This document shows positions 454 to 55,105 of a stretch of 64,000 bases of DNA, piece by piece. The translations under genes and the position numbers were made by a program. The stretch's first letter is position 1, and each line of letters opens with the position of its first letter. This DNA is from Flavobacteriales bacterium. GTDB lineage: Bacteria > Bacteroidota > Bacteroidia > Flavobacteriales_D > CALLUQ01. Where the stretch lies: positions 722,792-786,791 of the forward strand of contig OY769938.1 in the NCBI GenBank assembly GCA_963669295.1. Direction: 5' to 3'. The notes under the pieces are model-generated. The model did not search any database and was not told the origin of the DNA. It saw only the letters and a program-made list of their open reading frames with translations.

Positions 454-469
454 TCCTTAACTTTCCCCT

Positions 470-901: not shown

Positions 902-962
902 CTGTCCATTCGCATCTTTTTCCACCATACTTGTAGTACCTTTACCTCGCTAAAAGTATAGC

Positions 963-3490: not shown

Positions 3491-3557
3491 CCTCCCCCCT
3501 CTTTCTACTTCTTTCAATTTTGCTATATTTAGTTGGTGTTAATTGAATAAGCGTCTT

Positions 3558-5510: not shown

Positions 5511-5653
5511 TACTGCAAAGGTGTTGGACTTACAATAATTAGCACAATTAGTATTGCTATACTTCAACGCTTTGTAGTATGTTTATTGCACCTAACCGTA
5601 CCTAATGCATGCTTTTTCTTGCAAAAGAATGGCGTGCTACTAAAACTGCTGAC

Positions 5654-8743: not shown

Positions 8744-9649
8744 CTACTCTATCATAGGAATCATGCCGCGCAAGCCCATGTCTACCACTGTATCGCCATC
8801 AAGTGGCTCGTAGATGCCATTGGCATTAGCATCGGTCCACTCAAAACTGTTGTTGGTCGACAATGAAATGTTAACAACAATGTCTTCTGTTTCATTTCCA
8901 GTGATGGTGAGTGCTGTTGGAAATTGCCCGGTAACAATGCACGAGCCTTGTGGAATTGGAGAAGTAGCAAATAACGGGTTGGGTACAGTAGTGGCACCTG
9001 GAGGCGCCTGGCCATCTACTACCGTATTGAAAGTACTTTCCTCAAATCCCCAATAACCTTGAAGTTTGTTGGCATTTACTGTAATGCTTTGGGTATTGAT
9101 GGTATAAGCAGAAATGTATGTTTCTGCACCAACAAAAGAAGCTATGGTGCCCTCAAGGTCGAAGCCGTTGGCTCGAAAATCGATGTTGTAGTTTTGATAC
9201 GAAAGAGATACTCGTAACCATTCGTAGGTACCTGGAGTAACCTGTGATAGTGGTATGGTAACAAACACCTCACCATTGTTCACTACGGTTGCTTGATCGT
9301 GATCGATGGCCACATTTCCTCCTGCACTTGTTACAGGTCCTTGATAGGCCACCTCTCCACTGCCCAATGCAGTAAACATATCTGGAGCCATTTCAATGTA
9401 ATTGGCACTTACCCCATTAAACCTGGGAGATTGGGCAGAGTGTCCGGCAGGAATGGTTGCCGGGTTCCCTAAATTATCCAACCTACTTTGTGTAGAGTCG
9501 AGGGTAAATTTAAAAACGAGTGATGCTGCATTGTTGGCACCTCCACTTCCGGCAGGAGTGGTAGTGGTATCATCGTCTTTTTTACATGAGGTTACCACAA
9601 GGCCAAAGGCCAAAGCAGTTACCAGGAATTGAAGGGTTTTTCTTTTCAT
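8744..9649 (-). CDS. hypothetical lipoprotein
   Basis: The ATG at 9649 gives MKRKTLQFLVTALAFGLVVTSCKKDD (lipobox). No family recognised. Confidence 0.55.
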   Translation of the reverse strand: MKRKTLQFLVTALAFGLVVTSCKKDDDTTTTPAGSGGANNAASLVFKFTLDSTQSRLDNLGNPATIPAGHSAQSPRFNGVSANYIEMAPDMFTALGSGEVAYQGPVTSAGGNVAIDHDQATVVNNGEVFVTIPLSQVTPGTYEWLRVSLSYQNYNIDFRANGFDLEGTIASFVGAETYISAYTINTQSITVNANKLQGYWGFEESTFNTVVDGQAPPGATTVPNPLFATSPIPQGSCIVTGQFPTALTITGNETEDIVVNISLSTNNSFEWTDANANGIYEPLDGDTVVDMGLRGMIPMIE

Positions 9650-9744
9650 GAAATGAGAGTTAAGTGGTTGCAATTTAGGGAATTTATCAAAATAGCTGTT
9701 CCTTTTTTAAAGGAATGCGTTATACCATCAGTAAACATAAAAAG

Positions 9745-10581
9745 ATGAAATATACCTTGCTCCTACCCCTACTGGCTTTTACCATGGCATTCACCTGCTA
9801 TGCTTGCGCCACAACATCAACAAACATCGAGCCACATGCTGTAAACGGACACTGGTTACAAACTGGTGCTACGGTAGCAATAGATTTTACACTAGGGGCT
9901 GCGGAAGTACTTCCCTCTTCTGTTTATGCAGTAGATACTGCTGACCTTGCCACTGTAAAAAAGCAATATGGTGTACTTAAGAGTACTATTAAACAACAGC
10001 GGCAACAATTGGCACAACAGTACAACCAGGCCTCTACCGATAGCAGCAAAGCTGTAGCATTACAACAAGCCCGTCAGTACCTACATCAAGTATTGGTGAA
10101 TGATGTATTTCCTACCTGGTATGGTACCGAATGGGATTTTAACGGCTATACCAACCACCCTCGCGATGGACAAATTGCCTGCGGCTACTTTGTATCAACT
10201 ACCCTCAAGCATACCGGTATCAACATCAATCGTTATGATGTTGCTAAACAGTATTCGCACTCCATTGTAAAAACCCTTTGCACTTCCGATAGCATTCAAC
10301 GCATTACTAATTTCGATCAATTGCTCAAGTACTTGAACAATCGTCCTAACGATCTCTACATTGTTGGCTTAGACAGTCATGTGGGCTTCCTTCAAAAATC
10401 AGATGAAGGCATCTTCTTCATTCACTCCAACTACATTGGGCCGGTAGCGGTAGAAAAAGAGCTTGCCACCCAATCAGAAGCCCTGCAATACTCAGAAGTA
10501 TGGGTATTGGGACATTTAATGTCGAACGATGCCTTGATCAAAAAGTGGTTAACAGGCATCTCTATTCCAGTTGTTGAATAA
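9745..10581 (+). CDS. hypothetical secreted protein
   Basis: The internal ATG gives MKYTLLLPLLAFTMAFTCYA, a signal-like N-terminus. No family recognised. Confidence 0.5.
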   Translation: MKYTLLLPLLAFTMAFTCYACATTSTNIEPHAVNGHWLQTGATVAIDFTLGAAEVLPSSVYAVDTADLATVKKQYGVLKSTIKQQRQQLAQQYNQASTDSSKAVALQQARQYLHQVLVNDVFPTWYGTEWDFNGYTNHPRDGQIACGYFVSTTLKHTGININRYDVAKQYSHSIVKTLCTSDSIQRITNFDQLLKYLNNRPNDLYIVGLDSHVGFLQKSDEGIFFIHSNYIGPVAVEKELATQSEALQYSEVWVLGHLMSNDALIKKWLTGISIPVVE

Positions 10582-10628
10582 ACATGTAATGGCATGGTTC
10601 TTGTCGGTGGTTGTAACAAAATTAAAGC

Positions 10629-11072
10629 ATGGCAAAACAGCAACTACACCTCTCAAAACCCTGCATTGAAAACTGGAGTAAAATGACTCCCAACCAACAA
10701 GGGAGACATTGTGAACAATGCAATCTTACCGTAGTTGATTTCACGCAACATTCCAAAGAAGAAATCATTGAATTCTTTGAACAAAGAAAACATCAACATA
10801 TTTGTGGGCGTTATCAAAAAAAGCACATCGATCAAATTGCCTATAAGCATCAATTGGCGCAACTGTTTAAGATAACTCCATCCGTAAAAAACTACGCTTT
10901 ACTTCCTGTTAAGCTTGTTGTGGCTTGTTACCTGCTATTCATTACTTCGAGTTGCATGGGGGCACATGTTGCACAGCCAGCTACATACGACGTTAATGGC
11001 CCTTCTTCTTCCATAAAAAAAGTTGAATATATGCCTCCTCATGAATTGGATAACTCCGAAATAAATGGTTAA
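10629..11072 (+). CDS. hypothetical protein with an N-terminal Cys-rich (zinc-ribbon-like) module and one TM helix
   Basis: N-terminus CIENW..GRHCEQCNLTVVDF..ICGRY, followed by a hydrophobic helix LLPVKLVVACYLLFITSSC. Function unknown. Confidence 0.45.
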   Translation: MAKQQLHLSKPCIENWSKMTPNQQGRHCEQCNLTVVDFTQHSKEEIIEFFEQRKHQHICGRYQKKHIDQIAYKHQLAQLFKITPSVKNYALLPVKLVVACYLLFITSSCMGAHVAQPATYDVNGPSSSIKKVEYMPPHELDNSEING

Positions 11073-11178
11073 TTTATTCTCTTAAATACAAGGCCAATTA
11101 TTAAGGTGCCTAACTGCTAAAACTACTCTCCTCTCACAATTTTTCAATCTCCATTTACGTATTGTTAAAAAAAGAGCT

Positions 11179-11712: not shown

Positions 11713-14118
11713 ATGAAAAGAAACATTCAAAAAGTTGCGGTACTGGGATCTGGGGTAATGGGATCGCGTATTGCATGCCATTGTGCCAACATAGGCCTGG
11801 AAGTATTATTGCTTGACATTGCTCCGAAAGAGGCCAATGAGAAAGAACAGGCAAAAGGGTTAACCGTAGAAGACAGTGCAGTACGCAATCGGATTGTGAA
11901 CGATGCACTGAAGTTTGCCTTAAAGTCTAACCCCTCCCCTATTTACCGAAAATCGTTTGCTGATAGAATCGCTACAGGAAACTTTGATGATGATTTATCG
12001 AAGATTGCCGATTGCGATTGGATCATTGAGGTGATTATTGAAAACCTGGACATTAAAAAAGGATTATTCGAAAAGGTAGAGCAGCACCGCAAACCCGGCA
12101 CACTCATTACTTCTAACACCTCAGGTATCCCTATTCATATGATGCTAGATGGAAGAAGTGAAGATTTCCAAAAGCATTTTTGTGGCACACACTTTTTCAA
12201 CCCTCCTCGGTATTTAAAGTTGTTGGAGATTATTCCTACTCCGAAAACCGACCCTGATGTGGTTGACTTTTTCATGGAATACGGCAGCAAGTACCTGGGA
12301 AAAACCACTGTACTCTGTAAAGATACGCCTGCATTTATCGCTAACCGGGTAGGCGTATACTCTATCATGGCATTGTTTCACCTGGTAGAAGAAATGGACC
12401 TTACGGTTGATGAGGTCGATAAGCTTTCGGGGCCTGTACTTGGGCGCCCAAAATCAGCTACTTTTCGCACCTGTGATGTAGTAGGACTTGACACGTTAGT
12501 GCACGTAGCCAATGGCGTACAACAAAATTGTCCGGATGACGAAGCCAATGCGTTGTTTGCCATTCCTGATTACATTTCGAAGATGGTAGCAAACAATTGG
12601 TTGGGAAGTAAAACCAAGCAAGGGTTTTATAAGAAGGTGAAAGACGAAAATGGCAAAAGCCAGATTCTTTCGTTGAACCTCAAAACCCTCGAATATGAGC
12701 CCAAGCAAAAAGTAAAATTTGCTACCCTCGATATGGCCAAGCCGGTAGAAGATTTGAATGAGCGAATTAAAGTATTGGCCAGCGGGCAGGATAAAGCAGG
12801 CGAATTTTATCGCAAAGCCTTTACCGGGTTGTTTCAATACGTATCGAACCGCATTCCTGAAATATCAGACGAGCTTTATAAAATTGACGACGCATTAAAA
12901 GCAGGATTTGCCTGGGAGCTAGGCCCTTTTGAAACCTGGGACTTGCTGGGTGTAGAAACCATTTTACAACAAATGGAAAAGGCCGATCGTAAGCCAGCGC
13001 AATGGGTATACGACATGGTAGCTTCTGGTGCTACTTCTTTCTATAAGATTGAAGATGGCATGCGTAAGTTTTACGACATTGGCACCCAATCTTATCAAAG
13101 CATTCCCGGTACAGAAGAACTCATTATGTTGGATGCCATTCGCAGTTCCAACACCATTTGGAAAAACTCCGACTGTACCATTACCGACCTAGGCGATGGC
13201 ATCATCAACCTTGAGTGGCAAACCAAGATGAATACCATTGGTGGTGGCGTAATTCAGGGGATCAATAAAGCACTCGATTTGGCCGAGGCTGAATACAAAG
13301 GGTTGATTCTTTCGAATGAAGGACAAAACTTTTCAGCGGGTGCCAATGTGGGCATGATCTTCATGATGGCAGTAGAACAAGAGTGGGAAGAACTCAACTT
13401 TGCCATACAAGCCTTTCAAAATACCATGATGCGCTTGCGGTACTCTTCCATCCCTGTTATTGCAGCTCCCCATGGACTTACGCTTGGCGGTGGTTGCGAA
13501 ATTTGCCTCCATGCCGATAAGGTTATTGCCAATGGTGAAACTTACATGGGACTCGTTGAGTTTGGTGTAGGCCTTATTCCTGGAGGCGGTGGTACCAAAG
13601 AATTTGCTGTGCGCTTCTCCGACTCGTTGCAAGAAGGCGATGTAGAAATAAATACGCTGCGCAACAAGTTCTTAACCGTAGGGCAAGCCAAAGTAGCCAC
13701 TTCAGGCTATGAAGCATTTGACCTGGGTTACTTACGAGAAGGACAAGATGAAGTAATCGTAAGCAAGGCACACCAATTGGCCTACGCCAAAGAAGCATGT
13801 ATGGCCATGGTAGACAAAGGGTATGTAGCCCCACTAGAGCGTACAGATATTAAAGTGCTCGGACAACAAGGCTTAGGCCTGGTATATGTGGGCGCCAACT
13901 CTATGCTTTCTGGCAACTACATTTCCGAACACGATCAGTACATTTCCGAGAAACTTGGCTTTGTGCTTTGCGGTGGCGACTTGTCGAAGCCCACCAAAGT
14001 TTCGGAACGCTACCTCCTTAAATTGGAGCGAGAAGCTTTCCTCGATTTATGCACCAAAAGGAAAACCCTGGAGCGCATTGAATCGATTGTAAAAACAGGT
14101 AGAATATTAAGGAACTAA
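11713..14118 (+). CDS. bifunctional 3-hydroxyacyl-CoA dehydrogenase / enoyl-CoA hydratase (FadB/FadJ-like, dehydrogenase domain N-terminal)
   Basis: N-terminal NAD fold VAVLGSGVMGSRIA with 3HCDH-like FFNPP. C-terminal crotonase-like region (FSAGANV, GLTLGGGCEICLHAD). Confidence 0.9.
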   Translation: MKRNIQKVAVLGSGVMGSRIACHCANIGLEVLLLDIAPKEANEKEQAKGLTVEDSAVRNRIVNDALKFALKSNPSPIYRKSFADRIATGNFDDDLSKIADCDWIIEVIIENLDIKKGLFEKVEQHRKPGTLITSNTSGIPIHMMLDGRSEDFQKHFCGTHFFNPPRYLKLLEIIPTPKTDPDVVDFFMEYGSKYLGKTTVLCKDTPAFIANRVGVYSIMALFHLVEEMDLTVDEVDKLSGPVLGRPKSATFRTCDVVGLDTLVHVANGVQQNCPDDEANALFAIPDYISKMVANNWLGSKTKQGFYKKVKDENGKSQILSLNLKTLEYEPKQKVKFATLDMAKPVEDLNERIKVLASGQDKAGEFYRKAFTGLFQYVSNRIPEISDELYKIDDALKAGFAWELGPFETWDLLGVETILQQMEKADRKPAQWVYDMVASGATSFYKIEDGMRKFYDIGTQSYQSIPGTEELIMLDAIRSSNTIWKNSDCTITDLGDGIINLEWQTKMNTIGGGVIQGINKALDLAEAEYKGLILSNEGQNFSAGANVGMIFMMAVEQEWEELNFAIQAFQNTMMRLRYSSIPVIAAPHGLTLGGGCEICLHADKVIANGETYMGLVEFGVGLIPGGGGTKEFAVRFSDSLQEGDVEINTLRNKFLTVGQAKVATSGYEAFDLGYLREGQDEVIVSKAHQLAYAKEACMAMVDKGYVAPLERTDIKVLGQQGLGLVYVGANSMLSGNYISEHDQYISEKLGFVLCGGDLSKPTKVSERYLLKLEREAFLDLCTKRKTLERIESIVKTGRILRN

Positions 14119-14136
14119 CGATATAAATACAACGCT

Positions 14137-15315
14137 ATGGACGCTTATATAATAGCAGGATATCGATCGGCAGTAGGAAAAGCCAAACGCGGTGGTTTTG
14201 GGTTCACCCGCCCCGATGATTTGGCAGCCGATGTGATTAAACACCTGATGAACGACCTCCCCCAATTGGATAAGGATCGTATTGACGACCTTATTGTTGG
14301 CAATGCAATGCCTGAGGCCGAGCAAGGATTAAATGTAGGGCGTTTAATCTCGCTGATGAGTTTAAACACCGACAAAGTGCCCGGAATGACTGTAAACCGT
14401 TATTGTTCTTCAGGGTTAGAAACCATTGCCATTGCTTCCAGCAAAATTCACGCAGGCCTCGACAATTGCATCATTGCAGGTGGCGTTGAATCGATGACTG
14501 CTATTCCGATGGGTGGATGGCGCATTGTTCCTAATGCTACTGTTGGTAAAGAACACCCTACCTGGTATTGGGGCATGGGGCTTACTGCAGAAGCCGTGGC
14601 TAAAGAGTTTGAGGTAAGCAGAGAAGATCAAGATGAATTTGCCTTTAACTCTCATCAAAAAGCCATTAAGGCTATTAGCGAAGGAAAATTTAAAGATGAA
14701 ATTAGTCCTATTAACATTGAGGAAGTGTACCTCGACAAGCAAGAAAAAAGGCAAACTCGTGAATATGTAGTAGACACTGATGAGGGACCACGAAAAGATA
14801 CCAACATTGAGGCACTGGCGCGGTTGAAACCTGTTTTTGCCCAGGGCGGTTCTGTTACTGCGGGCAACTCTTCTCAAACTTCAGATGGAGCTGCTTTTGT
14901 GATGGTAGTATCGGAAGCCATGCTGAAAGAACTGAATGTTGAGCCTATTGCACAATTGAAAAGCTACCACGTAGCCGGAGTAGACCCTCGCATTATGGGC
15001 ATTGGCCCTGTAGCTGCTATACCTGAAGCGGTAAAGAAGGCCGGGCTTACATTGAACGACATTGAACAAATAGAATTGAATGAAGCTTTTGCTTCACAAT
15101 CGTTAGCCGTAATACGCAAGCTTGGACTGAACCCCGACATTGTGAATGTAAACGGTGGTGCTATAGCCCTGGGACATCCATTGGGTTGTACTGGTGCCAA
15201 GTTATCGGTACAGTTGTTTAACGAAATGCGTCGTCGCAACCAAAAGTATGGTATGGTTACCATGTGCGTTGGAACCGGACAGGGAGCGGCAGGCGTTTAC
15301 GAATTATTGAACTAG
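14137..15315 (+). CDS. acetyl-CoA C-acyltransferase (thiolase)
   Basis: Active-site Cys context [10 protein letters not shown], plus NEAFA and C-terminal [15 protein letters not shown]. Confidence 0.95.
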
Positions 15316-15333
15316 TAAATAAACATTAAGATA

Positions 15334-17127
15334 ATGTCTGAGACTACACAAAAACAAGCCATTAAGGGCGGCGAGTTTCTAATCCGAGAAACAGACGCCA
15401 ACGATATTTTCATTCCGGAAGAATGGACCGAAGAACAGCATATGATTCGACAAACCTGCATCGATTTTATTGAGCAGGAAGTTACTCCACACCTCGACCG
15501 CATTGATAGCCTTGAGGAAGGGTTAATGCCTTCGCTTATGGAAAAAGCTGGTGAGCTGGGCATGTTAGGCATGTCGGTACCTGCTGAGTTGGGTGGTATG
15601 GGTGTTGACTTTAAAACATCGATGTTGGCTACTGAAGCCGCAGGAACAGGGCATTCTTTTTCGGTGGCATTTGGAGCACATACCGGCATTGGCACCTTAC
15701 CTATCTTATACTATGGCAATGAGGAACAAAAGCAAAAATACATTCCCAAATTAGCTTCTGGCGAATGGAAAGCATGCTACTGCCTTACCGAGCCTGGCTC
15801 TGGATCGGATGCCAACTCAGGTAAAACCAAAGCTGCCCTTACCGAAGATGGTAAGCACTACATCATCAACGGGCAAAAAATGTGGATTACCAACGGAGGT
15901 TTTGCAGATGTTTTTACCGTATTCGCAAAAATTGACGACGACGAAAACCTCACTGCATTTATTGTAGAAAAAGGTGCAGAAGGATTGTCGTTGAACCCTG
16001 AGGAAAAGAAAATGGGTATTAAAGGCTCTTCTACCCGCCAGGTGTTTTTTAACAACGTAAAGATTCCAGTAGAAAACATGTTGTACGAGCGTGGCAAAGG
16101 GTTTAAGATTGCCATTAACATCCTCAACATTGGTCGTATTAAACTGGCTGGTGGAGTGATGGGAGGATGCAAAGCCACCATTACTGGAGCAATACAGTAT
16201 GCCAATGAGCGCGAACAGTTTGGTCGTCCTATTTCGAAATATGGAGCTATCCGTCATAAGTTAGGCGAAATGGCTATTCGTACCTATGCATTAGAATCTG
16301 CTACCTACCGTGCCAGTCAAAACATTGATGATGCCATTGAAGCGTTGATTGCCAGTGGCATGGATAAAAGTGAAGCAACACTAAAAGGCATCGAAGAGTT
16401 TGCTGCCGAATGTGCTGTACTCAAAATTAACGGATCAGAAGTACTGGATTACGTGGTAGATGAGGGTGTACAGATTCATGGTGGCATGGGCTACTCGGCC
16501 GAGTCGCGTGTAGAGCGCGCTTACCGCGACGCACGTATCAACCGCATTTTTGAAGGCACCAACGAAATCAATCGCATGCTTACGGTAGACATGATCTTGA
16601 AACGTGCCATGCGTGGACAATTGGACTTGATGGGGCCTGCCATGGCTGTAGCCAATGAATTGATGTCGATTCCCGATTTTGGTGAGCCAGATGATGCCTT
16701 GTTCGCTGCCGAGAAAAAATACATTCAAAACTTCAAAAAGTCCATTTTAATGGTAGCCGGCCAGGCAGCTCAAAAATTGATGATGCAATTGGCCAAAGAA
16801 CAAGAAATTTTGATGAATGTAGCCGACATGGCCATGGATGCCTATGTAGCTGAATCGGTTATGCTGAGGACAGAAAAAATGGTGCGTATGAAAGGGGAAG
16901 AAGCGTGTGCCGTGCAACTGGATATGATGCGTACCTTCATTAACGAAGCAGCCGACCGCATCAATAAGGCGGGACGTGATGCCATCAATGCTTTCATGGA
17001 AGGCGATGAGCAACGCATGATGTTAATGGGCATGAAGCGCTTTACCAAGGTGCAGCCATTAAATACAAAGGCTGCCCGACAAAATGTGGCTACCGCACTG
17101 ATTGAGGCCAATGAATATTGCTTTTAA
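15334..17127 (+). CDS. acyl-CoA dehydrogenase (long form with C-terminal extension)
   Basis: ACAD motifs CLTEPGSGSDA, WITNGG, QIHGGMGY and IFEGTNEINR. It is the third gene of the beta-oxidation operon. Confidence 0.9.
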   Translation: MSETTQKQAIKGGEFLIRETDANDIFIPEEWTEEQHMIRQTCIDFIEQEVTPHLDRIDSLEEGLMPSLMEKAGELGMLGMSVPAELGGMGVDFKTSMLATEAAGTGHSFSVAFGAHTGIGTLPILYYGNEEQKQKYIPKLASGEWKACYCLTEPGSGSDANSGKTKAALTEDGKHYIINGQKMWITNGGFADVFTVFAKIDDDENLTAFIVEKGAEGLSLNPEEKKMGIKGSSTRQVFFNNVKIPVENMLYERGKGFKIAINILNIGRIKLAGGVMGGCKATITGAIQYANEREQFGRPISKYGAIRHKLGEMAIRTYALESATYRASQNIDDAIEALIASGMDKSEATLKGIEEFAAECAVLKINGSEVLDYVVDEGVQIHGGMGYSAESRVERAYRDARINRIFEGTNEINRMLTVDMILKRAMRGQLDLMGPAMAVANELMSIPDFGEPDDALFAAEKKYIQNFKKSILMVAGQAAQKLMMQLAKEQEILMNVADMAMDAYVAESVMLRTEKMVRMKGEEACAVQLDMMRTFINEAADRINKAGRDAINAFMEGDEQRMMLMGMKRFTKVQPLNTKAARQNVATALIEANEYCF

Positions 17128-45918: not shown

Positions 45919-47211
45919 ATGCATATGATGATCATCCGCCTTACATTGACTTGTTTCCTGTGCACCATCATGTATGCTGCTTCAGGACAAGGCTTAACCG
46001 ATGCCCAACTCATTGCACAGATCAACCATAACCCACCGCTGCAACAAGGGCAATTAAAAACCACCTTATTGAACCACTCGCCACTCTCAGAGTCAGTTAT
46101 GACGGCTGTAGTAGCACGCGACCCTGCTTTTTCGCCTGGGATATTAAAGGAACTGGTATTGGCCAATTCGCCTATTTCTAATGATGTGGCCATTGCCATA
46201 GGTGCAATGGAACTCCCTGACGGCATCCTCAATGCCATCATTGCTGCACAACCTCCACCAGAGGCGGGCTTTGAACTCACTGGCTCTTACGCCAGGCCCA
46301 ACCAACCCTTATCGTTGGCGAACCTCAGCACTACCGGTGCTGATGTATGGTACTTTTGGGAGTTTTACGACATCGACGAAAATGGTGTACCTACTTTGGT
46401 AGGCACCAGCAACGACTTTGAACCTACATTTTCTTTTACCACTCCCGGCACCAAGGAAGTTTACCTCATGGCCAAACAACATGGCTGGGGTGTAGGGTCG
46501 GGCAAGGAGTTGGTGGTGTACGAAAAAGGCGCCAACAAACACCAGGTATACCGATTGCGCAACAATTTAAACACCATCCTTAAAGCTACACTCAACCTGT
46601 GCACCAATCCAACCCTACTTGCCGATGTATACCAACAAGTTTTACAAACTCCTGAAAACGATTACAACCTCAAATATTCCACCCTGCTCAACAACAACCC
46701 TGGCTTGTTTGGCACCATGAAAAACTCGTTGCAAAACAATGGAGGTGATAAAAACGACCTCGACAACCTCGAGTGCATTATCAACTCGTTTAAGGTGGGC
46801 GAAGAATGGGTATATCCTTCCATCTACATCCCCTACCTTCAAGAAAATGCCATGCCCGACTTCTCCTCGCCCCCATACATTGGCATTAATGTAGAAGATG
46901 GGTTAACAGAGAAATTGCAGGTATTTAAATACGATGGGAGATGGGAAAAGGTACTATTGACTCCTCAACAATATTTGGAAGAAAACATTGTGTTTGTAAC
47001 CGTTAAAGGCAGCGCAGTATGGAAGTTATTCTTAACACGGTGCACCTGCAAAATACCACCTCCACTGGCGCACGAAATAGAACGGAAAGGCTTTCCATGC
47101 AGCCCTGGAACAGCCGGGCCGGTGATTGCGAAATGTGGGCATCTGCTTTTTGGTGCTTGTAGGTTCCAGGGAGGTGCCAGTTGTGAAGATAAGTGTTGGG
47201 TAGGCGGTTAA
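45919..47211 (+). CDS. hypothetical secreted protein with a Cys-rich C-terminal tail
   Basis: Signal peptide. The last 55 or so aa contain 7 Cys (CTCKIPPP...CSPG...KCGHLLFGACRFQGGASCEDKCWVGG). First gene of a tightly packed three-gene set. Confidence 0.5.
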   Translation: MHMMIIRLTLTCFLCTIMYAASGQGLTDAQLIAQINHNPPLQQGQLKTTLLNHSPLSESVMTAVVARDPAFSPGILKELVLANSPISNDVAIAIGAMELPDGILNAIIAAQPPPEAGFELTGSYARPNQPLSLANLSTTGADVWYFWEFYDIDENGVPTLVGTSNDFEPTFSFTTPGTKEVYLMAKQHGWGVGSGKELVVYEKGANKHQVYRLRNNLNTILKATLNLCTNPTLLADVYQQVLQTPENDYNLKYSTLLNNNPGLFGTMKNSLQNNGGDKNDLDNLECIINSFKVGEEWVYPSIYIPYLQENAMPDFSSPPYIGINVEDGLTEKLQVFKYDGRWEKVLLTPQQYLEENIVFVTVKGSAVWKLFLTRCTCKIPPPLAHEIERKGFPCSPGTAGPVIAKCGHLLFGACRFQGGASCEDKCWVGG

Positions 47212-47212
47212 T

Positions 47213-48331
47213 ATGAAAGCAATCATCACCATAATATTCATCGGCTTGCTGAGCCATGCCACTGCCCAATGGCAACTGGTCGATTCTGTATTGTTTCCTT
47301 TTCCTGCATTAAAAGATAGCTCGTTGGCTCACGGAGCCAACATGGAAGGCGATACACTATTGCTCACCAACAGTTACAACAACCATTTCTACCTCTACCC
47401 CAACAAAGACATTGCTCCACTTACCTACCTCCCCACCAACGGAAAAATGAAAAAACAGCAAACCAAAGCAGTCATTAAAGTGGGAGCTCAACTCACCCTC
47501 GTGGGGCTTTGGGGAGGCATTGGCAGTTTTACCTCTGTTGACCTGAATTCGTACAAAGTAAAGCGACGTAAGCTCACCAACAAGAAAAAACCTTTTGGCC
47601 ATAAATATGTCATGAACGAAGGCATGAGCGTACATACTCCTGCCATTTACATTGCCAATAAAAATGTGGTACTGGTACCCATCATCCCCAAACCAGGCAA
47701 ACTCGATCAGTTTTCTTCGCCAGCAGCTTATTTCAACAACGATGGCATTATTGGTGCGTATTCTCCTAAAGGCAAGCTGCAACAACTTATGGGTCAACGC
47801 GACCCCATTTACAAAACAGGCGATAAAGCACGCTATCACCACCTTAACCATTGCTCGTACAGTTACGATGCCCGACAAGAATACCTGTATGTTGGTTCAG
47901 GAGCTTCGCACCTCATTCGGGTGTACGACTGGAACAACAAAGAGGTGGCTGTATTTGGTGAGCCTGGCAATCATTTGGGCGACGTTAAAGCACCAAGGCC
48001 TTATGTTCCAACAGCGGTCATGGGCGTTGACATGGCTGAGGAATACTACACCAAATTCAAACAAGATCCTTCGTACCAATACGTATACCGCGATGCGGAA
48101 AACCAACGCACCTTTCGCACCTACCAACCTGCAGCTACTGGCGAGCACATGGAACACAAGCCCATTTGTTTACAGATTTACGATGCCAGCAACAAGCTGA
48201 TTTACGACGAGGTGCTGGATGTTGATTTTTTCAAGATCATTCAACAAAAAGGCAGCACCTATTGGGTAGATTGCCGCAACAACCAGTTTAAATCGAACTA
48301 CGTTATTTACCAATACCAATTCGCCCCATGA
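47213..48331 (+). CDS. hypothetical secreted protein (possibly beta-propeller)
   Basis: Signal peptide MKAIITIIFIGLLSHATAQ. Starts 1 nt after the upstream stop. No family recognised. Confidence 0.5.
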   Translation: MKAIITIIFIGLLSHATAQWQLVDSVLFPFPALKDSSLAHGANMEGDTLLLTNSYNNHFYLYPNKDIAPLTYLPTNGKMKKQQTKAVIKVGAQLTLVGLWGGIGSFTSVDLNSYKVKRRKLTNKKKPFGHKYVMNEGMSVHTPAIYIANKNVVLVPIIPKPGKLDQFSSPAAYFNNDGIIGAYSPKGKLQQLMGQRDPIYKTGDKARYHHLNHCSYSYDARQEYLYVGSGASHLIRVYDWNNKEVAVFGEPGNHLGDVKAPRPYVPTAVMGVDMAEEYYTKFKQDPSYQYVYRDAENQRTFRTYQPAATGEHMEHKPICLQIYDASNKLIYDEVLDVDFFKIIQQKGSTYWVDCRNNQFKSNYVIYQYQFAP

Positions 48332-48933
48332 GAATTTGTTTTACCATAGCACTGCTGCTTAGCCTGGGCACACTGCATGCCCAACAGTGCAACTACATCG
48401 TTGGCAAAGTAGAAAGCTCGCCTTGTACCCCCCTGCCCGATAGCATCATTGTTCAATTGTGCGATTCGTTGAATCAACCGTTAGGGTGTATCGATACTTG
48501 CAACGCAGAAGGGTATTTTGTAATTGCCACCAACAATACACCTGCCCTGTGTAAGCTGGTAGCCCATAAACCCGGGCATGCCTTTGCCCCCGAAGTGTGT
48601 CACCTCACCACCGAGTTGCTGAACGATCAACACACCTCTCTTACCTTACTCGATTCGTTGCCGTGCGATTCGCTGGAACAGCGCAGCCGATTTTACTCCC
48701 CCACTACTTCGCTTATCGTTACTCCGGTTCCTAATCCCAGCAACGGATGGGTACAACTGCAATTCAACCGGCCGGTAGCCAATGCCGAAGTAAGGGTGTT
48801 TAACACCTCAGGACAGCAGGTGTTGTACACCACGCAACCACACATCGATTTACAACAACAGCCCCATGGCATTTACCTGGTTACCGTACAGGTGGAAGAA
48901 CGGATGATTACCTGTAAAGTGGTGAAACGATAG
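48328..48933 (+). CDS. secreted protein with a T9SS C-terminal sorting domain
   Basis: ATGA overlap with the upstream gene. Signal peptide. C-terminal VTPVPNPSNGWVQLQF...HGIYLVTVQVEERMITCKVVKR resembles a T9SS CTD. Confidence 0.6.
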   Translation: MRICFTIALLLSLGTLHAQQCNYIVGKVESSPCTPLPDSIIVQLCDSLNQPLGCIDTCNAEGYFVIATNNTPALCKLVAHKPGHAFAPEVCHLTTELLNDQHTSLTLLDSLPCDSLEQRSRFYSPTTSLIVTPVPNPSNGWVQLQFNRPVANAEVRVFNTSGQQVLYTTQPHIDLQQQPHGIYLVTVQVEERMITCKVVKR

Positions 48934-49100: not shown

Positions 49101-49150
49101 AACAACCCTCGATCTTGATACAACATGAGAAGATGGAGGGTTGTTTTTTT
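49101..49150 (+). terminator. long imperfect hairpin followed by a T-run (candidate terminator)
   Basis: AACAACCCTCGATCTT...AAGATGGAGGGTTGTT followed by T7, in the gap between convergent genes. Confidence 0.45.
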
Positions 49151-49157
49151 ATGCCCC

Positions 49158-49796
49158 TTATTCCAGATCCAGCAAATCGTTCTCCACAGCAAAACGAATC
49201 ATCTGAGCGGTATTCCTTACTGGCAACTTATCCAGTAAATTACCACGGTGGGTTTTTACGGTATGGGTTGAAATATTCAAGTACCTGGCAATGGCTTTGG
49301 AAGTCATGCCTTTGGCAAGGCATTGCAACACTTCCACTTCGCGGGTAGTAAGATCTACATGCGCCTGGGTGTTTTTCGGCTCACTGATGCCACGCATTAC
49401 TACCTTGGTCACTTCATTGCAATAGTAGTAATCGCCTGCATGGGTTTTTCGAATGGCTTGCTCCAACTCTTCGTGGGTCGATTGTTTCAACACGTACCCC
49501 AACGCACCAATGTTTAATGCCGAACGAATAAAATCTTCCTCAGCATGCATCGACAACATTACAATGGCCATGTTGGGGTATTGTTTTAACAACGGTTCAA
49601 TGAGTTCCAGCCCGCTTACATCGGGCAGGGAAATGTCGAGCACCAACACATCAGCCGGATGCTCTTGCAAAATGGTTAACAATTGCTCTCCGGTTTCTGC
49701 AACCGCGGCTACGTTAAAATCAGAAATGTCTTTGAGCAAGGCCATCAAGCCTTGCGAAAAAATGCGGTGGTCGTCCGCCAGTACAACATTAATCAT
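49158..49796 (-). CDS. NarL/FixJ-type response regulator (REC plus LuxR HTH)
   Basis: REC motifs VVLADDH, VLVLDISLPD and LSMH. LuxR HTH LTTREVEVLQCLAKGMTSKAIARYLNISTHTVKTHRGNLLDKL. Confidence 0.9.
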   Translation of the reverse strand: MINVVLADDHRIFSQGLMALLKDISDFNVAAVAETGEQLLTILQEHPADVLVLDISLPDVSGLELIEPLLKQYPNMAIVMLSMHAEEDFIRSALNIGALGYVLKQSTHEELEQAIRKTHAGDYYYCNEVTKVVMRGISEPKNTQAHVDLTTREVEVLQCLAKGMTSKAIARYLNISTHTVKTHRGNLLDKLPVRNTAQMIRFAVENDLLDLE

Positions 49797-51651
49797 TGGA
49801 TAGTGGTATATAGAGGGTGAATATTACGCCTGATCCTGCGGCAGTGTTTATCTTCATTGTTCCTCCTAGTGAGGCGACTCTACGGTCGATGTTTTTCAGT
49901 CCCAACCCTTTGCCTTGCTCCACCAATTTGGGATTGAACCCTTTGCCATCGTCTTTTATAACCAATTGCAATTGGTTGGCCTTACGGCTAATGCGGATGG
50001 TAAGGGTGTTGGCCTCCGAATGTTTCAGGGCATTGGTAACCATTTCTTGCACCATTCGAAAACAATTGATCTCTACCCGATTGCTCAACCGCTCTTCCAT
50101 GCCAAAGGTTTTGATTACTACCTTGAGCTTTCCGGTGCTGTTGATGGTGTCGGCCAAATCGCGCAGCGCTGGTACCAATCCAAAGTTGAGCAATACCGAC
50201 GATACCATGTCGTTGGAGATTTTCCGAATTTCTTCGATAGCATCGTTGAGCAGTGCCTCGGTGGTTTTGTATTGCACCGATTGCTTTTTGAGCTGATTGC
50301 CCAGGTTGCCCAGGTGAATTTTTACGGTAGACAACAGCCCGCCCATACGGTCGTGCAATTCTTGCGATACCCGCTTGCGCTCGTTTTCCTGCCCTTCCAT
50401 AATGGCGTTGAAGTATTTTTTGTCTTGCTCCAAAATCATGGTATTGATTTTGTTCTGAGCAGCGAGGTGCTGAGCGATTTTGCGTTGGCGGTAGAAGAAA
50501 AAAATCAACCCCAATAATACTAGCAGCGTCCCCCCGCCCAAATAACTATACAACAACTGCTCCCTGCTCCATTCGTTCTCCTGCTTAAGGAGTTGATTGT
50601 CTTGTTCTTTTTTTTCTGTTTGGTACCGAATGTGCAACTCATTGACTTTACTTTTCACAGCCTCATTAAGTACCTGCCCCTTGATGTATTGATACCTCCT
50701 GAAATATTTTAATGCCTTTTCATAATCGTTGAGACTCAAATGATATGCATAGAGGTTTTCGTTTATTTCAATTCTTCGGCTCTGATCGTTCAACACCAAT
50801 GCCAAAGAATCAGCCAATAACAAATAGTTGAGTACTTGTTCATGCGCATTGAGCTCTTTATACAACTCCGCCAAATCGATGCAACAAGGAATTCTGTTTT
50901 TGATGTTATTGGTAAGGATATACTGTTGCTCTGCAGCAGAATAATAGTGCAACGCACTATCCAGTCTACCATAAACATGATGGATCAATCCAACCGCTAA
51001 CAATACATCCGCGCGTCCTTCTACCTTCCCTATTTGAATGTACCACTGGTCGCTTTGAAAATAGCATTCCAAAGCCATATCATCGTTGTACAGATAATAG
51101 TGCGCATTGCCTATGTTATACATCGCATCCGCCATCCAGGCCGTATCATTGGCCAGTACCATTTTATCAAATGCCTGCTCGTAATGCTGCAATGCCAATT
51201 TATATTGCTGCTTAGCTCCAACATCATTCGTATCTCGCTCTAAAAATATTCCTTCATCCAAATAGGTATTGCCAATGTCCATTAAGCAACGGCCAACATC
51301 CACCAGCCAACCATGCCTTTCTCGAATCCGCAGTGCCTCATAAAATGCTTCATGCGCTAACTTCCAATTGCCCATCTTCTTCCAGGCCATTCCTTTTCGT
51401 TGATACCCTGTTGCCAACAATCGCTCATTGCCCAATTGCTCAGCTTTTTTGATAGTAAGGTTGGCATAATACAATGCGGAATCGTTGTTGAACAACCGGT
51501 ATTCAAACGACAATTCCGCATACAAGGAAGCCAGCACCGAGTCGTTTGGGGCTGTACGACTCCATGCCAGCAAGCTGTCTTTTTTGGTAACCGATGCCTC
51601 AGCGACAAGGGCAAACAGCAATAATAGATATAGTAATAAGTACCTATGCAA
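49789..51651 (-). CDS. sensor histidine kinase with an N-terminal TPR-like sensor region (HisKA_3 plus HATPase_c)
   Basis: Signal peptide; about 350 aa of TPR-like repeats; one TM helix (LLVLLGLIFFFY). H-box ERKRVSQELHDRMGG, N-box MVTNALKHS and G-boxes DDGKGF/GLGLKNI. The stop overlaps the response-regulator start by 8 nt. Confidence 0.85.
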   Translation of the reverse strand: MHRYLLLYLLLLFALVAEASVTKKDSLLAWSRTAPNDSVLASLYAELSFEYRLFNNDSALYYANLTIKKAEQLGNERLLATGYQRKGMAWKKMGNWKLAHEAFYEALRIRERHGWLVDVGRCLMDIGNTYLDEGIFLERDTNDVGAKQQYKLALQHYEQAFDKMVLANDTAWMADAMYNIGNAHYYLYNDDMALECYFQSDQWYIQIGKVEGRADVLLAVGLIHHVYGRLDSALHYYSAAEQQYILTNNIKNRIPCCIDLAELYKELNAHEQVLNYLLLADSLALVLNDQSRRIEINENLYAYHLSLNDYEKALKYFRRYQYIKGQVLNEAVKSKVNELHIRYQTEKKEQDNQLLKQENEWSREQLLYSYLGGGTLLVLLGLIFFFYRQRKIAQHLAAQNKINTMILEQDKKYFNAIMEGQENERKRVSQELHDRMGGLLSTVKIHLGNLGNQLKKQSVQYKTTEALLNDAIEEIRKISNDMVSSVLLNFGLVPALRDLADTINSTGKLKVVIKTFGMEERLSNRVEINCFRMVQEMVTNALKHSEANTLTIRISRKANQLQLVIKDDGKGFNPKLVEQGKGLGLKNIDRRVASLGGTMKINTAAGSGVIFTLYIPLSND

Positions 51652-52087
51652 TCCTCACTCTACCTCCTCCCCCATCTTTTACGACTACTGCTTTTCTTCG
51701 AATTGTTTTTGTTTCTCCGTCTTTCTTATCGTACACAACAATATCTATCGTCTTCTTACACTCTTCCGTACTCCGATTTGCATCCCCGCAATTGGGCAAT
51801 GAATCTTCTGCTTTGTAATACCTGGTATTCAACACCTTGAGTGTTGAGGTACCCGTATCAGCATGTTTAGTAATGGAAATGATGAGGTAATAACTCTCTG
51901 CATGTACCCAATGTCCTGTTCCCGGAGTTTGCGAAGCCGGAACCTGGCTCACCCCCATGCCCTGGAGTAACCTTGAATCTTTGGATGTTTCGTATTCTTT
52001 AAATTTCTTATTGGGGTCATCAATATCTACAATAAGCTGCTCTGTTACTTTGTCAAAGCTTAAGTTGGTAATATCATATTCTGCCAT
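51644..52087 (-). CDS. hypothetical 147-aa cytoplasmic protein
   Basis: ATG start 19 nt after the caspase-like gene stop. Its stop overlaps the kinase start by 8 nt. No signal peptide and no family recognised. Confidence 0.5.
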   Translation of the reverse strand: MAEYDITNLSFDKVTEQLIVDIDDPNKKFKEYETSKDSRLLQGMGVSQVPASQTPGTGHWVHAESYYLIISITKHADTGTSTLKVLNTRYYKAEDSLPNCGDANRSTEECKKTIDIVVYDKKDGETKTIRRKAVVVKDGGGGRVRIA

Positions 52088-52106
52088 AACTAGTCGTTGT
52101 TAGAAT

Positions 52107-52919
52107 TTAATCGTTGTACATAAAAGTTCTCTTAAAGGGCAAGCGAGTATCTACACGCCCCTCATGGTAGTGCCAAACCGAAGACAATTGGTGTGGTCGA
52201 TTAGGATGAAACATGTACCGTTGAACATGCTCAAAGAAATCGTAATAATCATCCTCTGGCTCACGGTTCTTCCAGGCGCACAAAAGTGCCTCCGTAAAGT
52301 ATGAAAACCGGCTCCCCTCATAGGTTTTTGAATCTTCCTTGCTTCCCGACATTACTACCACACTGGCATCAACTTTCTTTCGCGGAATTCTTGGCCTTGA
52401 AAGAATTTCATCATACAACGACTTGTGTTTTTCAAATACATTTGGCTTATATTCTTCATCTGGGTCCACCAATTCAGTTTCAGGAGTTACACCTATCGTT
52501 GGCCCACTGTTGCAAGCATCCGAAATCAATACAATCTTTACTCCCTTCTTAAACAAACTGGCCAACTCCCAAAGCTCAAAATGAAACAACACCCGATCAT
52601 ACATGCACCATCCTTCATCCTCCAGCTCACTGTTTTCTACATCAAACTCCTTTTGAACACCCTTTCCATGCCCACAAAATGAAAGCACCAACATGTCCTC
52701 CGCTTTCATTTTTTTCGCCAGGGCTCTTAGCCTAACTTTTAATGCTGAAGTAGTTGCTTCATCATACAACAAAGGCTCCGACTTATAACACAATCCTTTA
52801 AATAAATCATGCAAACGCATCGCACCTGGTTCAGCGGTAGCCCAACCCAATGAATTGGGATAATGCTCCCTATCCACATTGTTCAGTCCGATGTTGATGA
52901 CATAACCTTTTTTTCCCAT
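52107..52919 (-). CDS. caspase-like (peptidase C14 / orthocaspase) domain protein
   Basis: C14 layout: YVINIGLNNV (p20 start); catalytic His context MLVLSFCGHGKG; catalytic Cys context KIVLISDACNSG; p10-like VVVMSGSKEDSKTYEG...FSYFTEALL. No signal peptide. Confidence 0.75.
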   Translation of the reverse strand: MGKKGYVINIGLNNVDREHYPNSLGWATAEPGAMRLHDLFKGLCYKSEPLLYDEATTSALKVRLRALAKKMKAEDMLVLSFCGHGKGVQKEFDVENSELEDEGWCMYDRVLFHFELWELASLFKKGVKIVLISDACNSGPTIGVTPETELVDPDEEYKPNVFEKHKSLYDEILSRPRIPRKKVDASVVVMSGSKEDSKTYEGSRFSYFTEALLCAWKNREPEDDYYDFFEHVQRYMFHPNRPHQLSSVWHYHEGRVDTRLPFKRTFMYND

Positions 52920-53170
52920 AATCTTTCGTTTTTAAGTGGTTCATAAATTTGTACTCCACAAATGTCACGAAAGCAAGCACACCGAATTACAAACATTTGG
53001 GCGATATTCTGCCTCCCTATAAAGGGGGAGTTCTTCCTCCCCATTTCTAAGTAGAATTACTTATAAAATACGCATAAACACGGTGTTTTTAATAAATATA
53101 ATAGTCTCTACCAAAATTCCAACTCTACCAGCCACTGTACTTATTCCTTCAAAATCACTACCTTTCTTTT

Positions 53171-53701
53171 ATGTACCGCTTCCTCTTTTTATGGTTGCTG
53201 CTTGCAGCGTGTACCACTGTCCCCCAACCTACCTGCGATGCGGGGGAAGCCCCTGCATTTTATACCATTGATGAAGACCTGGGCTACGTGATTTACCACG
53301 ACCTGAAAACAGCACAAGCCTGCTCGCGCACCAGCGGCAAACCCATACTACTTATGTTTACCTGTTGGGCCTGCATGGGCAATCGTGCCGGAGCAGAAAG
53401 CCTTTATACCCACCAAAAAGTACGCACCCTCATCAACGAAAACTACATCTTGCTGTGGCTGTATGTAGACGACAAACGTTTATTGCCTCATCCCAGCGGC
53501 ACCCAGCTCAACGGTCAACCCATCACCACCATTGGCCATCAAAACCTCACGCTCGAGATGACCCGATTCGATAACAATAGTCAACCGTTGTATGTGCTTG
53601 TGGATGCCGATCTCAATGCTTTGAGCGCCCCCCTGGGCTACCTCCCAAAAAAAGAACACTACCGCTTCGTTGATTTGCTGGAGCAAGGGCTCAAAGAGTA
53701 A
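53171..53701 (+). CDS. thioredoxin-fold lipoprotein (DUF255/thioredoxin-like)
   Basis: Lipobox LLLAACTT. GKPILLMFTCWACMGNR carries a CxxC-like motif (CWAC) at the position expected for a thioredoxin-fold active site. Confidence 0.5.
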   Translation: MYRFLFLWLLLAACTTVPQPTCDAGEAPAFYTIDEDLGYVIYHDLKTAQACSRTSGKPILLMFTCWACMGNRAGAESLYTHQKVRTLINENYILLWLYVDDKRLLPHPSGTQLNGQPITTIGHQNLTLEMTRFDNNSQPLYVLVDADLNALSAPLGYLPKKEHYRFVDLLEQGLKE

Positions 53702-54323: not shown

Positions 54324-54482
54324 ATGGAGAAGAAAATCAAAGTAAAAACCGGCAAACGAAAAATCACCGTCAAGCGATCAGCGGTCAAAAAAGCGGTTTC
54401 AAAAGCTCTTGCAGATAAGGAAGCGCAGGATACAGAAGAAGCTAAGGAAGCTAAGGCAACTGAAGAGGCTAAGAAAGAGTAA
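54324..54482 (+). CDS. small Lys-rich N-terminal / acidic C-terminal protein
   Basis: MEKKIKVKTGKRKITVKRSAVKKAVSK then DKEAQDTEEAKEAKATEEAKKE. The stop overlaps the next ATG (TAATG). Coding status is inferred from the coupling only. Confidence 0.4.
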   Translation: MEKKIKVKTGKRKITVKRSAVKKAVSKALADKEAQDTEEAKEAKATEEAKKE

Positions 54483-55105
54483 TGGCCACCGCTACCTACA
54501 ACGACTCGGTCTTCATCAACTGTCCGTTCGATGATGCCTATACCGATTTTTTCAATGCCCTGGTGTTTACCATTTACCGCTGCGGCTTTTACCCGCGCTG
54601 CGCCAAAGAAGAAGACAACGCCACCCAGGCGCGCATCAATAAAATTGTAAAGATCATTAAGAAGTGTCGTTACGGCATTCACGACATTTCTCGCATAGAG
54701 TTGAACCCGGCCGGTTACCCCCGCTTTAACATGCCTTATGAGTTAGGATTATTTTTTGGCGCGCAACGCTATGGCAATGCCAACCAGAAAAAGAAAAACG
54801 CGCTGATCCTTGAGCGCGAACAATTCACCTATCAACAATACATTTCCGACCTCAATGGCATTGATACCCGAGCGCACAACAACAACATCAATACCCTTAT
54901 TCAGTTGGTGCGCAACTGGCTCAACCAGGCCTCGCGTCGTACTACCATTCCAGGGCACAACATCATCATTGCCGATTGGGAAGAGTTTTACGATCAACTG
55001 CCCGGCCTACTTACCGAAAATGGGCTAGACATGCCCCACCTTACCTACAACGATTTGTGTGTATTCATTGAGGTGTGGATTTCAAGAAAGATCGCAGAAA
55101 GCTAA
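54482..55105 (+). CDS. uncharacterised protein with a TIR / nucleoside 2-deoxyribosyltransferase-like N-terminal Rossmannoid pattern
   Basis: SVFINCPFDD (strand 1), IVKIIKKCRYGIHDIS (helix-strand) and NMPYELGLFFG (conserved Glu) follow the pattern of the TIR/NDT-like superfamily. The C-terminal 90 or so aa are unknown. The assignment is by eye only. Confidence 0.4.
   Translation: MATATYNDSVFINCPFDDAYTDFFNALVFTIYRCGFYPRCAKEEDNATQARINKIVKIIKKCRYGIHDISRIELNPAGYPRFNMPYELGLFFGAQRYGNANQKKKNALILEREQFTYQQYISDLNGIDTRAHNNNINTLIQLVRNWLNQASRRTTIPGHNIIIADWEEFYDQLPGLLTENGLDMPHLTYNDLCVFIEVWISRKIAES

Follow-up and report, generated by a model that had tools for sequence, protein, structure and literature searches.

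What is a caspase-like protease doing directly beside a two-component system? Bacterial caspase homologues are numerous, and for only few of them is a substrate or a trigger known. The question is raised here by a stretch of 64,000 nucleotides (nt) from a Flavobacteriales bacterium (contig OY769938.1 of assembly GCA_963669295.1, positions 722,792 to 786,791; this whole stretch is called the window in the following). On its minus strand, at 49158-52919, it carries four genes in the order caspase-like protease, small protein, sensor kinase and response regulator. We find that this four-gene block is the unit of conservation and not a chance neighbourhood, and that it is rare and occurs in few, distantly related marine Bacteroidota. 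From the protein sequences we infer that the cassette encodes a protease and its cognate partner under two-component control. All components except the partner belong to well-known families, and the combination does not match any described system that we found: neither PADLOC, nor the NCBIfam names, nor the full-text literature searched holds a description of a cassette of C14 protease, TPR kinase and LuxR regulator. Within that literature it would be the first described caspase-partner pair that is connected with a two-component system in place of a fused sensor of the STAND, TPR or CRISPR kind, and it adds a protein family without detectable relatives. The cassette is compact and genetically tractable, and with it one could identify what a bacterial caspase cleaves, what triggers it and what its output is. 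Since the module is rare (four lineages), its general importance may be limited.

The four-gene block and its conservation

The four minus-strand open reading frames (ORFs) are tightly packed in the window, and the initial annotation had described their arrangement exactly to the base. Read directly in the sequence, the caspase and small-protein genes are separated by 19 nt, the stop codon of the small gene and the start of the kinase gene share 8 nt (TTGCATAG), and the kinase stop and the regulator start share another 8 nt (ATGATTAA). Coordinates of all features are collected in Table 1.

A word-indexed search with the window caspase returned only two relatives, with 35% and 29% identity. Downstream of both caspase genes come, in identical order and orientation, a small gene and the genes of a TPR/HisKA_3 kinase and of a REC-GerE regulator, and a genome scan places both in two metagenome-assembled genomes of Owenweeksia (Flavobacteriales), with no further genome found. 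The records used here are L001 from Owenweeksia sp. IP29b_bin.152 and L002, L004 and L006 from uncultured Owenweeksia; the overlap of kinase and regulator genes is present in L001 and L006 too. Protein identity between the window and the Owenweeksia cassettes is 23-36%. An 811-bp Tara ocean contig (L005), found by phmmer, carries the C-terminus of a homologous caspase, then the small gene and then the start of a signal-peptide-like ORF. The initial annotation had suggested asking whether the small gene always follows the caspase gene and whether the two-component system travels with them. The first is the case in four of four loci and the second in all three loci with enough sequence, which speaks against chance adjacency. 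When every ORF of the three long loci (about 17-22 kb each) was compared by all-against-all BLASTP, only the four genes were common to them. In these searches the small-protein family was never met without the caspase, nor without the two-component system where the contig was long enough. Two metagenome scans, one viral scan and searches of plasmids and phages gave no further loci, and all four lineages are apparently marine Bacteroidota.

Because the gene order recurs in two other contexts that share only these four genes, the arrangement goes beyond chance, and chance adjacency is unlikely. The sensor domain of the window kinase is collinear with its counterparts in L001 (E=4e-42) and L002 (E=9e-21). 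Since the periplasmic sensor domains are collinear homologues, the kinases are orthologous and not TPR kinases that were recruited separately. The nearest plasmid-borne relatives of the protease, single-domain caspases on Bacillus, Rhizobium and Deinococcus plasmids, differ from the cassette enzymes: they share 24-30% identity, and the three plasmid neighbourhoods that we examined hold neither the small partner nor a two-component system. As the association is absent from these three distant neighbourhoods, it is specific to the caspase subfamily of the cassette.

The records of uncultured Owenweeksia differ in detail. L004, which is the contig as held in GTDB, has two ORFs of 134 and 487 amino acids (aa) at 9303-11104 in place of one for the kinase, whereas the ENA assembly of the same sequence (L002) has a single kinase gene of 582 aa at 6413-8161. 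The caspase C-terminus differs between the records as well (262 aa versus 279/288 aa). These differences in kinase and caspase are probably assembly frameshifts and not biology.

Table 1. Positions of the cassette genes, of the kinase segments and of the RNA and DNA elements around them
Feature	Locus	Position	Strand	Residues	Remarks
Caspase-like cysteine protease gene	window	52107-52919	minus		270 aa, ATG start
Small partner protein gene	window	51644-52087	minus		147 aa, ATG start
Sensor histidine kinase gene	window	49789-51651	minus		620 aa, TTG start
NarL/LuxR-type response regulator gene	window	49158-49796	minus		212 aa, ATG start
Kinase, signal peptide	window	51595-51651	minus	1-19	sequence reading, AXA cleavage motif
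Kinase, periplasmic TPR sensor	window	50539-51594	minus	~20-371	TPR_1, TPR_12 (Pfam)
Kinase, transmembrane segment	window	50464-50538	minus	~372-396	positive residues (Arg/Lys) after the segment
Kinase, HisKA_3	window	50203-50382	minus	424-483	Pfam, E=4e-7
Kinase, HATPase_c	window	49798-50067	minus	529-618	Pfam, E=2e-16
Intergenic region upstream of caspase gene	window	52920-53170	minus		presumed promoter/leader
Stem-loop past the regulator stop codon	window	49101-49145	minus		fold -19 kcal/mol, z=-2.5
Stem-loop between small gene and kinase	L001	9261-9300			-24.6 kcal/mol, z=-4.1
Stem-loop between small gene and kinase	L006	10430-10467			-18.1 kcal/mol, z=-4.3
Stem-loop between small gene and kinase	L005	759-798			17-bp stem, -20.7 kcal/mol, z=-5.8

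The protease and its small partner

The protease matches Pfam PF00656 (Peptidase_C14) over residues 32-237 with E=2.1e-14 and 54.2 bits, above the curated cutoff of 21.4. The catalytic His84 lies in SFCGHGKG (codon 52668-52670) and Cys136 in ISDACNSG (codon 52512-52514), and in an alignment of the three full-length orthologues H84, D134 and C136 are invariant. A profile built from the window caspase and two orthologues matches PDB 3BIJ, the Geobacter protein GSU0716, with E=1.8e-30. The motifs around the dyad are in register with the GHG and D-x-C-H-S-G motifs of 3BIJ and of metacaspase-4. Since GHG and D-x-C-x-S-G fall into register in this way, the dyad is correctly aligned, and the Peptidase_C14 call that had been made from the bare sequence is confirmed. 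With its His/Cys dyad intact, the enzyme is apparently active as a protease. Judged by sequence, it is a single-domain caspase of the GSU0716-like type: like the GSU0716-type C14 peptidases and orthocaspases it has the PF00656 fold with the GHG and D-x-C-x-S-G motifs, and with the GSU0716 type it also shares a DE-x-WC-x-x-D motif between the catalytic motifs, a length of about 270-285 aa and the lack of extra domains. The motif of the subfamily reads EDEGWCMYDRVLFxFELWELA. To our knowledge no member of this subfamily has been characterised, and in PADLOC-DB v2 the caspase obtains a sub-threshold match only (E=0.003, 14.8 bits). An N-terminal hydrophobic segment or signal peptide was not found in the translation.

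Characterised non-caspase C14 enzymes all cut after Arg or Lys (PMC5756287). In the cassette enzymes D134, the Asp that precedes the catalytic Cys by two residues, is invariant and is a candidate position for the acidic pocket, whereas the C-x-x-D motif of the metacaspase specificity pocket is not conserved. As this second acidic position is not kept throughout, a preference for Arg or Lys at P1 can only be assumed.

The small protein is a member of a new protein family. A profile search over 5.8 billion clusters and an exhaustive phmmer search of 1.84 billion representatives yield four members of 125-147 aa; the two from Owenweeksia, of 125 and 139 aa, can be aligned with the 147-aa protein of the window. 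A single-sequence word-indexed search with the small protein returned the query itself only, and a repeat-rich protein of 769 aa (P0006) that was matched by phmmer was discounted as compositional. The initial annotation had recognised no family for the 147-aa protein, and the databases agree with this. None of the four members has a Pfam match at E<=10, and there is no match to PDB sequences at E<=10 or to plasmids or phages. For the window protein PADLOC gave nothing at E<=1 and PHROGs no match (one other member gave a single match of 0.003), and NCBIfam returned only three chance matches far below cutoff (E 0.006-0.13). AlphaFold models based on the alignment of four sequences reach a pLDDT of 37 with the window protein first and of 47 with the shortest orthologue first; both consist of beta strands only, save for a single helix of 5 residues in the model with the window protein first. 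The family is thus predicted, at low confidence, to be beta-rich. Foldseek with the better model against the PDB (best E=0.24, TM<0.3) assigned no fold.

The conservation within the family is concentrated at the two ends, while the middle part is variable and rich in indels. The N-terminus is MA[EV][YF][DE]I (in the window MAEYDI, 52070-52087), and the alignment of the four members contains an NT[RA][YF][YF]-like motif. The C-terminal tail has the conserved pattern K127-x3-R131-x4-V136-x2-G139GG (51665-51709), with 0-5 variable residues after the GGG. K127 and R131 are the only conserved basic residues of the protein, both in this tail, and the invariant Arg stands 10-16 residues before the C-terminus. 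The protein is hydrophilic (GRAVY -0.4 to -0.6), and an N-terminal hydrophobic segment was not found in the translation. One orthologue ends exactly at the GGG and the others add 4-5 residues, which prompted the idea of a ubiquitin-like tail; this was rejected, since no E1/E2-like gene is conserved in the loci. We know of no C14 enzyme that processes ubiquitin-like tails.

The conserved tail might be what the protease cuts, or it might be what blocks the protease. In the second case the small protein would not be a substrate but the cognate inhibitor of the protease, a safety catch in the manner of an antitoxin. Made stoichiometrically with the protease, it would occupy the active site with its basic and Gly-rich tail in a substrate-like manner, and only its loss, or a failure to keep pace, would release the protease. 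Bacteroidota offer a precedent. Bacteroides C10 cysteine proteases are co-transcribed with staphostatin-like inhibitors of 116-138 aa that are mainly beta-sheet, and the staphopain/staphostatin and SpeB/Spi operons have a matching organisation (PMC3462683). In staphopain/staphostatin and the Bacteroides pairs of Bfp/Btp with Bfi/Bti, a mainly beta protein of about 105-140 aa is encoded directly next to a cysteine protease, and the two genes are expressed together (PMC3462683); the small protein of the cassette has this position and would be co-expressed likewise. The partner in our loci is of similar length (125-147 aa), is predicted to be all-beta and is encoded 13-21 nt downstream of the protease gene in four of four loci. 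The conserved glycines of its tail, and a hairpin that in three loci closes the caspase-small pair off from the kinase, would also suit an inhibitor. However, Pfam and PDB sequences reveal no similarity of the small proteins to staphostatins or to any inhibitor family, even at E<=10. In the known cases the inhibitor guards the cytoplasm against a secreted papain-like protease (C10/C47), whereas the cassette protease belongs to clan CD, lacks a signal peptide and is cytoplasmic. Moreover, the single-domain caspases in the three distant neighbourhoods have no adjacent partner. A substrate-mimic inhibitor is a serious rival to the substrate model, and as an account of the cassette we regard it as doubtful.

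The two-component system, expression and divergence

The kinase and the regulator had been read as a TPR/HisKA_3 kinase with signal peptide and a NarL-type regulator. The corresponding Pfam domains are all found, and the topology of the kinase can be read from its sequence (Table 1). TTG is the only in-frame start of the kinase gene after the preceding stop codon, and the N-terminus that begins there, MHRYLLLYLLLLFALVAEA/S, is a signal peptide of similar length and character as those of the orthologues. The regulator matches Response_reg (E=9e-26) and GerE (E=5e-20). NCBIfam models of the MctS/MctR, LiaS and NarL types match kinase and regulator below their equivalog cutoffs, while PADLOC has no match for the kinase and only generic helix-turn-helix models for the regulator. 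By their domain content the two proteins form a two-component system of the NarL/LuxR class. The predicted topology places the TPR domain of the kinase in the periplasm, and the caspase and the small protein in the cytoplasm.

The initial annotation took the gene packing to imply one transcript. The overlaps in the window do fit coupling, but strong hairpins split the small gene from the kinase in the three other loci L001, L006 and L005. Since these hairpins lie at the kinase start, a single transcript is not a safe assumption across the family. The kinase AUG is base-paired within the stem-loop in three of three, the position of the stem-loop is conserved while its sequence is not, and in L001 and L006 the U-run 3' of the stem consists of Phe codons of the kinase signal peptide. 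The window has no such stem-loop at the kinase start (z=+0.9) and has the stop/start overlap with a weak TTG instead. The caspase-small and kinase-regulator pairs may therefore be expressed as separable sub-units, and either design, hairpin or TTG overlap, would keep the output of kinase and regulator below that of the caspase-partner pair.

One could go further and take the hairpins as a sign that the caspase-small pair and the two-component system are independent units, merely neighbours whose joint inheritance is confined to a few related genomes. The number of known lineages (3-4, all from marine Bacteroidota) would agree with this, and so would the placement of the pair in the cytoplasm and of the sensor in the periplasm. 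Yet the four genes have not separated although identity is down to 23-36% and none of the flanking genes is common to the three contexts, and in the window the small-gene stop and the kinase start overlap. In addition, caspase, small protein and sensor diverge to a similar degree (see below), and the small-protein family never occurs without the two-component system where the contig is long enough. Mere neighbourhood of two unrelated units is thus very improbable.

Upstream of the caspase gene lies an intergenic region of 251 nt (52920-53170), from which the caspase gene and a gene for a thioredoxin-like lipoprotein (53171-53701) diverge. The 12-mer GTTGGAATTTTG is found here at 53112-53123 (minus), at -204 from the caspase gene and once in the 64-kb window. 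It recurs upstream of the caspase gene of L006 (~8973-8984, -167) and was not found in L001. A direct repeat, TGGTAGAG, stands on both sides of the window 12-mer with 17-nt spacing; the short upstream repeats differ between loci. The 12-mer could be a site for the regulator or a promoter element. A sigma-70-like match is located at 53122-53095, and a Bacteroidetes TAnnTTTG element was not found upstream of the caspase gene in any locus. The same region contains a GGGGAG/CTCCCC stem-loop (~53013-53054) with a flanking direct repeat TTCT(G/T)CCTCCC(T/C)AT, whose fold energy is unexceptional (z=-1.3). At the other end of the cassette, the stem-loop past the regulator stop codon is a candidate terminator of the operon and may work in both directions, for the convergent gene with its end at 48933 as well. 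This assignment is tentative, since a clear U-run is not present.

How the four proteins diverge can be followed in the one congeneric pair, the two Owenweeksia loci. Identity within this pair is 69% for the regulator and 50.5% for the cytoplasmic half of the kinase, and it falls to 36% for the caspase, 26% for the small protein and 24% for the periplasmic sensor. The last three values are no higher than those of either locus against the window. Because the sensor has diverged and the kinase core is conserved, conservation breaks off within the kinase gene rather than at a gene boundary. This is suggestive, for one genome pair, of a caspase, a partner and a sensor that diverged or were exchanged together, and it points to a fast-evolving specificity that may be common to the three.

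A gradient of this kind invites comparison with agrBDCA and comQXPA, and the cassette might in this sense be a self-signalling circuit (quorum, kin or danger). The caspase would process the small protein, a fragment of which would reach the periplasm, maybe via lysis only, and bind the TPR domain of the kinase, and the regulator would feed back on the cassette. TPR domains are classic peptide binders, and ComP and ComA are of the same class as the kinase (HisKA_3) and the regulator (GerE) of the cassette. The resemblance, which is one of layout only, consists in four adjacent and in part overlapping genes on one strand for a processing enzyme, a precursor, a HisKA_3-type kinase and a GerE-type regulator (PMC4008528). 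Variability is distributed similarly in comQXPA, where comQ, comX and the part of comP that encodes the sensor diverge, while "ComA shows lowest overall diversity" (PMC4008528). This is the pattern seen here with a divergent enzyme, precursor and sensor against a conserved regulator (69%) and kinase core (50%), and with the break inside the kinase gene. The components themselves are rather different. The cassette enzyme is a soluble C14 protease and not an isoprenyl transferase (ComQ) or a membrane peptidase (AgrB). The sensor is a periplasmic TPR domain with one transmembrane segment and is not polytopic. The putative precursor, with 125-147 aa, has 2-3 times the length of a propeptide of 40-75 aa and resembles a folded beta protein instead (the precursors of comQXPA and agr are under ~75 aa). 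Partner and protease both lack a signal peptide, the loci have no conserved exporter, and in this Gram-negative host, where an export route is not evident, the outer membrane would have to be crossed too. Furthermore, the conserved part of the tail is invariant and not pherotype-like, and the gradient stems from one genome pair. A self-signalling circuit is therefore quite improbable. In its strict form, a Gram-negative counterpart of agr/comQXPA with a caspase-processed precursor fragment that leaves by an unknown export route or lysis and is read by the TPR domain of the kinase, we hold it to be distinctly improbable; protease, precursor and receptor would then co-diversify in a pherotype-like manner. 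If it were true, peptide or protein pheromone circuits would be extended to Bacteroidota.

Proposed mode of action and genomic surroundings

The reading that we favour, tentatively and at somewhat less than an even chance when its mechanism is included, is a protease governed by the two-component system, with a dedicated partner as substrate or regulator. The TPR domain of the kinase would sense a periplasmic or envelope cue, upon which the kinase would phosphorylate the regulator. The regulator in turn would act on the region in front of the caspase gene and set how strongly the cassette is transcribed from there, and protease and small protein would be made together as a cognate pair. The protease would then act on the tail K-x3-R-x4-V-x2-GGG of the small protein, most likely with a cut after the invariant Arg (R131), by which a tail of 10-16 residues would be lost and the activity of the small protein changed. 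The output may be growth arrest, death or stress adaptation. We favour R131 as the site by analogy with gasdermins, which caspase-like proteases encoded next to them activate in this way.

Several points weigh against this model. Its steps are all derived by reasoning from sequence, and only three or four independent lineages carry the cassette. Direct contact between the sensor and the protease pair is excluded, since the sensor is periplasmic and the pair cytoplasmic. The C-x-x-D pocket motif (ACEAD in 3BIJ) is replaced in the caspases of the window and of L006. The fold of the small protein is without assignment, given models of pLDDT 37 and 47 and a best Foldseek hit of E=0.24 with TM<0.3, and the low-confidence model puts the invariant Arg into a beta strand and not into an exposed loop. 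A binding site of the regulator could not be defined from the loci, as the one 12-mer common to two of them is expected about 1 in 100 by chance (our own estimate). The divergence gradient is based on a single genome pair, and sensor domains evolve fast in many kinases.

The initial annotation named the proteases that activate bacterial gasdermins as one example of caspase-like proteases in conflict and death systems. Bacterial gasdermins become active when an adjacent C14 or CHAT protease cuts off about 20 aa at their C-terminus (bioRxiv 10.1101/2021.06.07.447441). As in these operons, a caspase-like protease is encoded beside a dedicated partner with a short, potentially cleavable C-terminal segment. 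For the identity of the partner the analogy fails on homology and on size: it is not a gasdermin by sequence (four proteins in Pfam at E<=10, the window protein in PADLOC), and with 125-147 aa it has about half the size. The protease also differs, as it has no TPR, NACHT or other sensor domain, and sensing would pass to the separate two-component system. We found no description of gasdermin operons with sensing delegated in this way in the literature searched, and we know of none.

The comparison nevertheless raises the possibility of an anti-phage system that acts by abortive infection or programmed death. The small protein would be a pro-toxin that is freed by loss of a C-terminal inhibitory peptide, and the two-component system would sense infection or envelope damage. 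The gasdermin precedent together with the invariant Arg 10-16 residues from the C-terminus would fit such a function, the cassette of L006 adjoins a type I restriction-modification system and Mrr, and the family is rare and patchy. The divergence gradient also fits an arms race, with fast change in caspase, small protein and sensor. On the other hand, the hydrophilic small protein, half the size of a gasdermin and without Pfam or PADLOC match, bears no amphipathic or lipid-binding signature. The PADLOC match of E=0.003 concerns the caspase only, and the neighbours of the cassette have none in any of the three loci. The window and L001 lie outside recognisable defence islands, and we know of no described defence system that is triggered by a two-component system with a periplasmic sensor. 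A defence role is possible but poorly supported, and a death system of this design is improbable.

The proposed cleavage of a partner by a caspase-like protease has a further parallel. In Craspase, the type III-E CRISPR effector, the TPR-CHAT protease cleaves Csx30 and a transcription response is released. The cassette likewise combines a caspase-like protease with one dedicated small protein and TPR repeats, and cleavage of the partner would likewise switch a transcriptional programme. It differs in that CRISPR-Cas components, a CHAT domain and a sigma/anti-sigma pair are all absent, and in that the TPR repeats are part of the kinase sensor and not of the protease.

The surroundings of the cassettes vary. 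In L006, the positions 376-7465 hold genes for HsdR, HsdS and HsdM of a type I restriction-modification system, an Mrr-like nuclease and a DUF559 gene, about 1.7 kb from the cassette; neither of the other two loci has surroundings that resemble a defence island. The same locus has, about 2 kb past its regulator gene, two adjacent paralogues (14905-15516 and 15567-16202, 203 and 211 aa), which both end in ...Y(H/Y)DYVGACPPNCE and have no Pfam match. In the window, a protein of 207 aa without signal peptide is encoded 1.5 kb upstream of the cassette at 54482-55105 (plus strand). It has only a sub-threshold match to the TIR domain of CAP12/Pycsar effectors (PF10137, E=0.005, 17 bits versus a cutoff of 24.7) and no PADLOC or PDB sequence match. 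On the other side, three tightly packed genes on the plus strand (45919-48933; 430, 372 and 201 aa) converge on the cassette, with a junction at 47211/47213 followed by a 4-nt overlap at 48328-48331. All three products have hydrophobic N-termini; the third carries a C-terminal sorting domain of the type IX secretion system (PF18962, E=8e-9), in keeping with an origin in Bacteroidota, and the first two have no family. In L001, a large gene (12428-16843, plus strand) starts about 600 nt downstream of the regulator gene on the same strand. Its product exceeds 2300 aa, runs off the locus and has a weak Poly_export match only, and the gene could be a target of the regulator in this genome.

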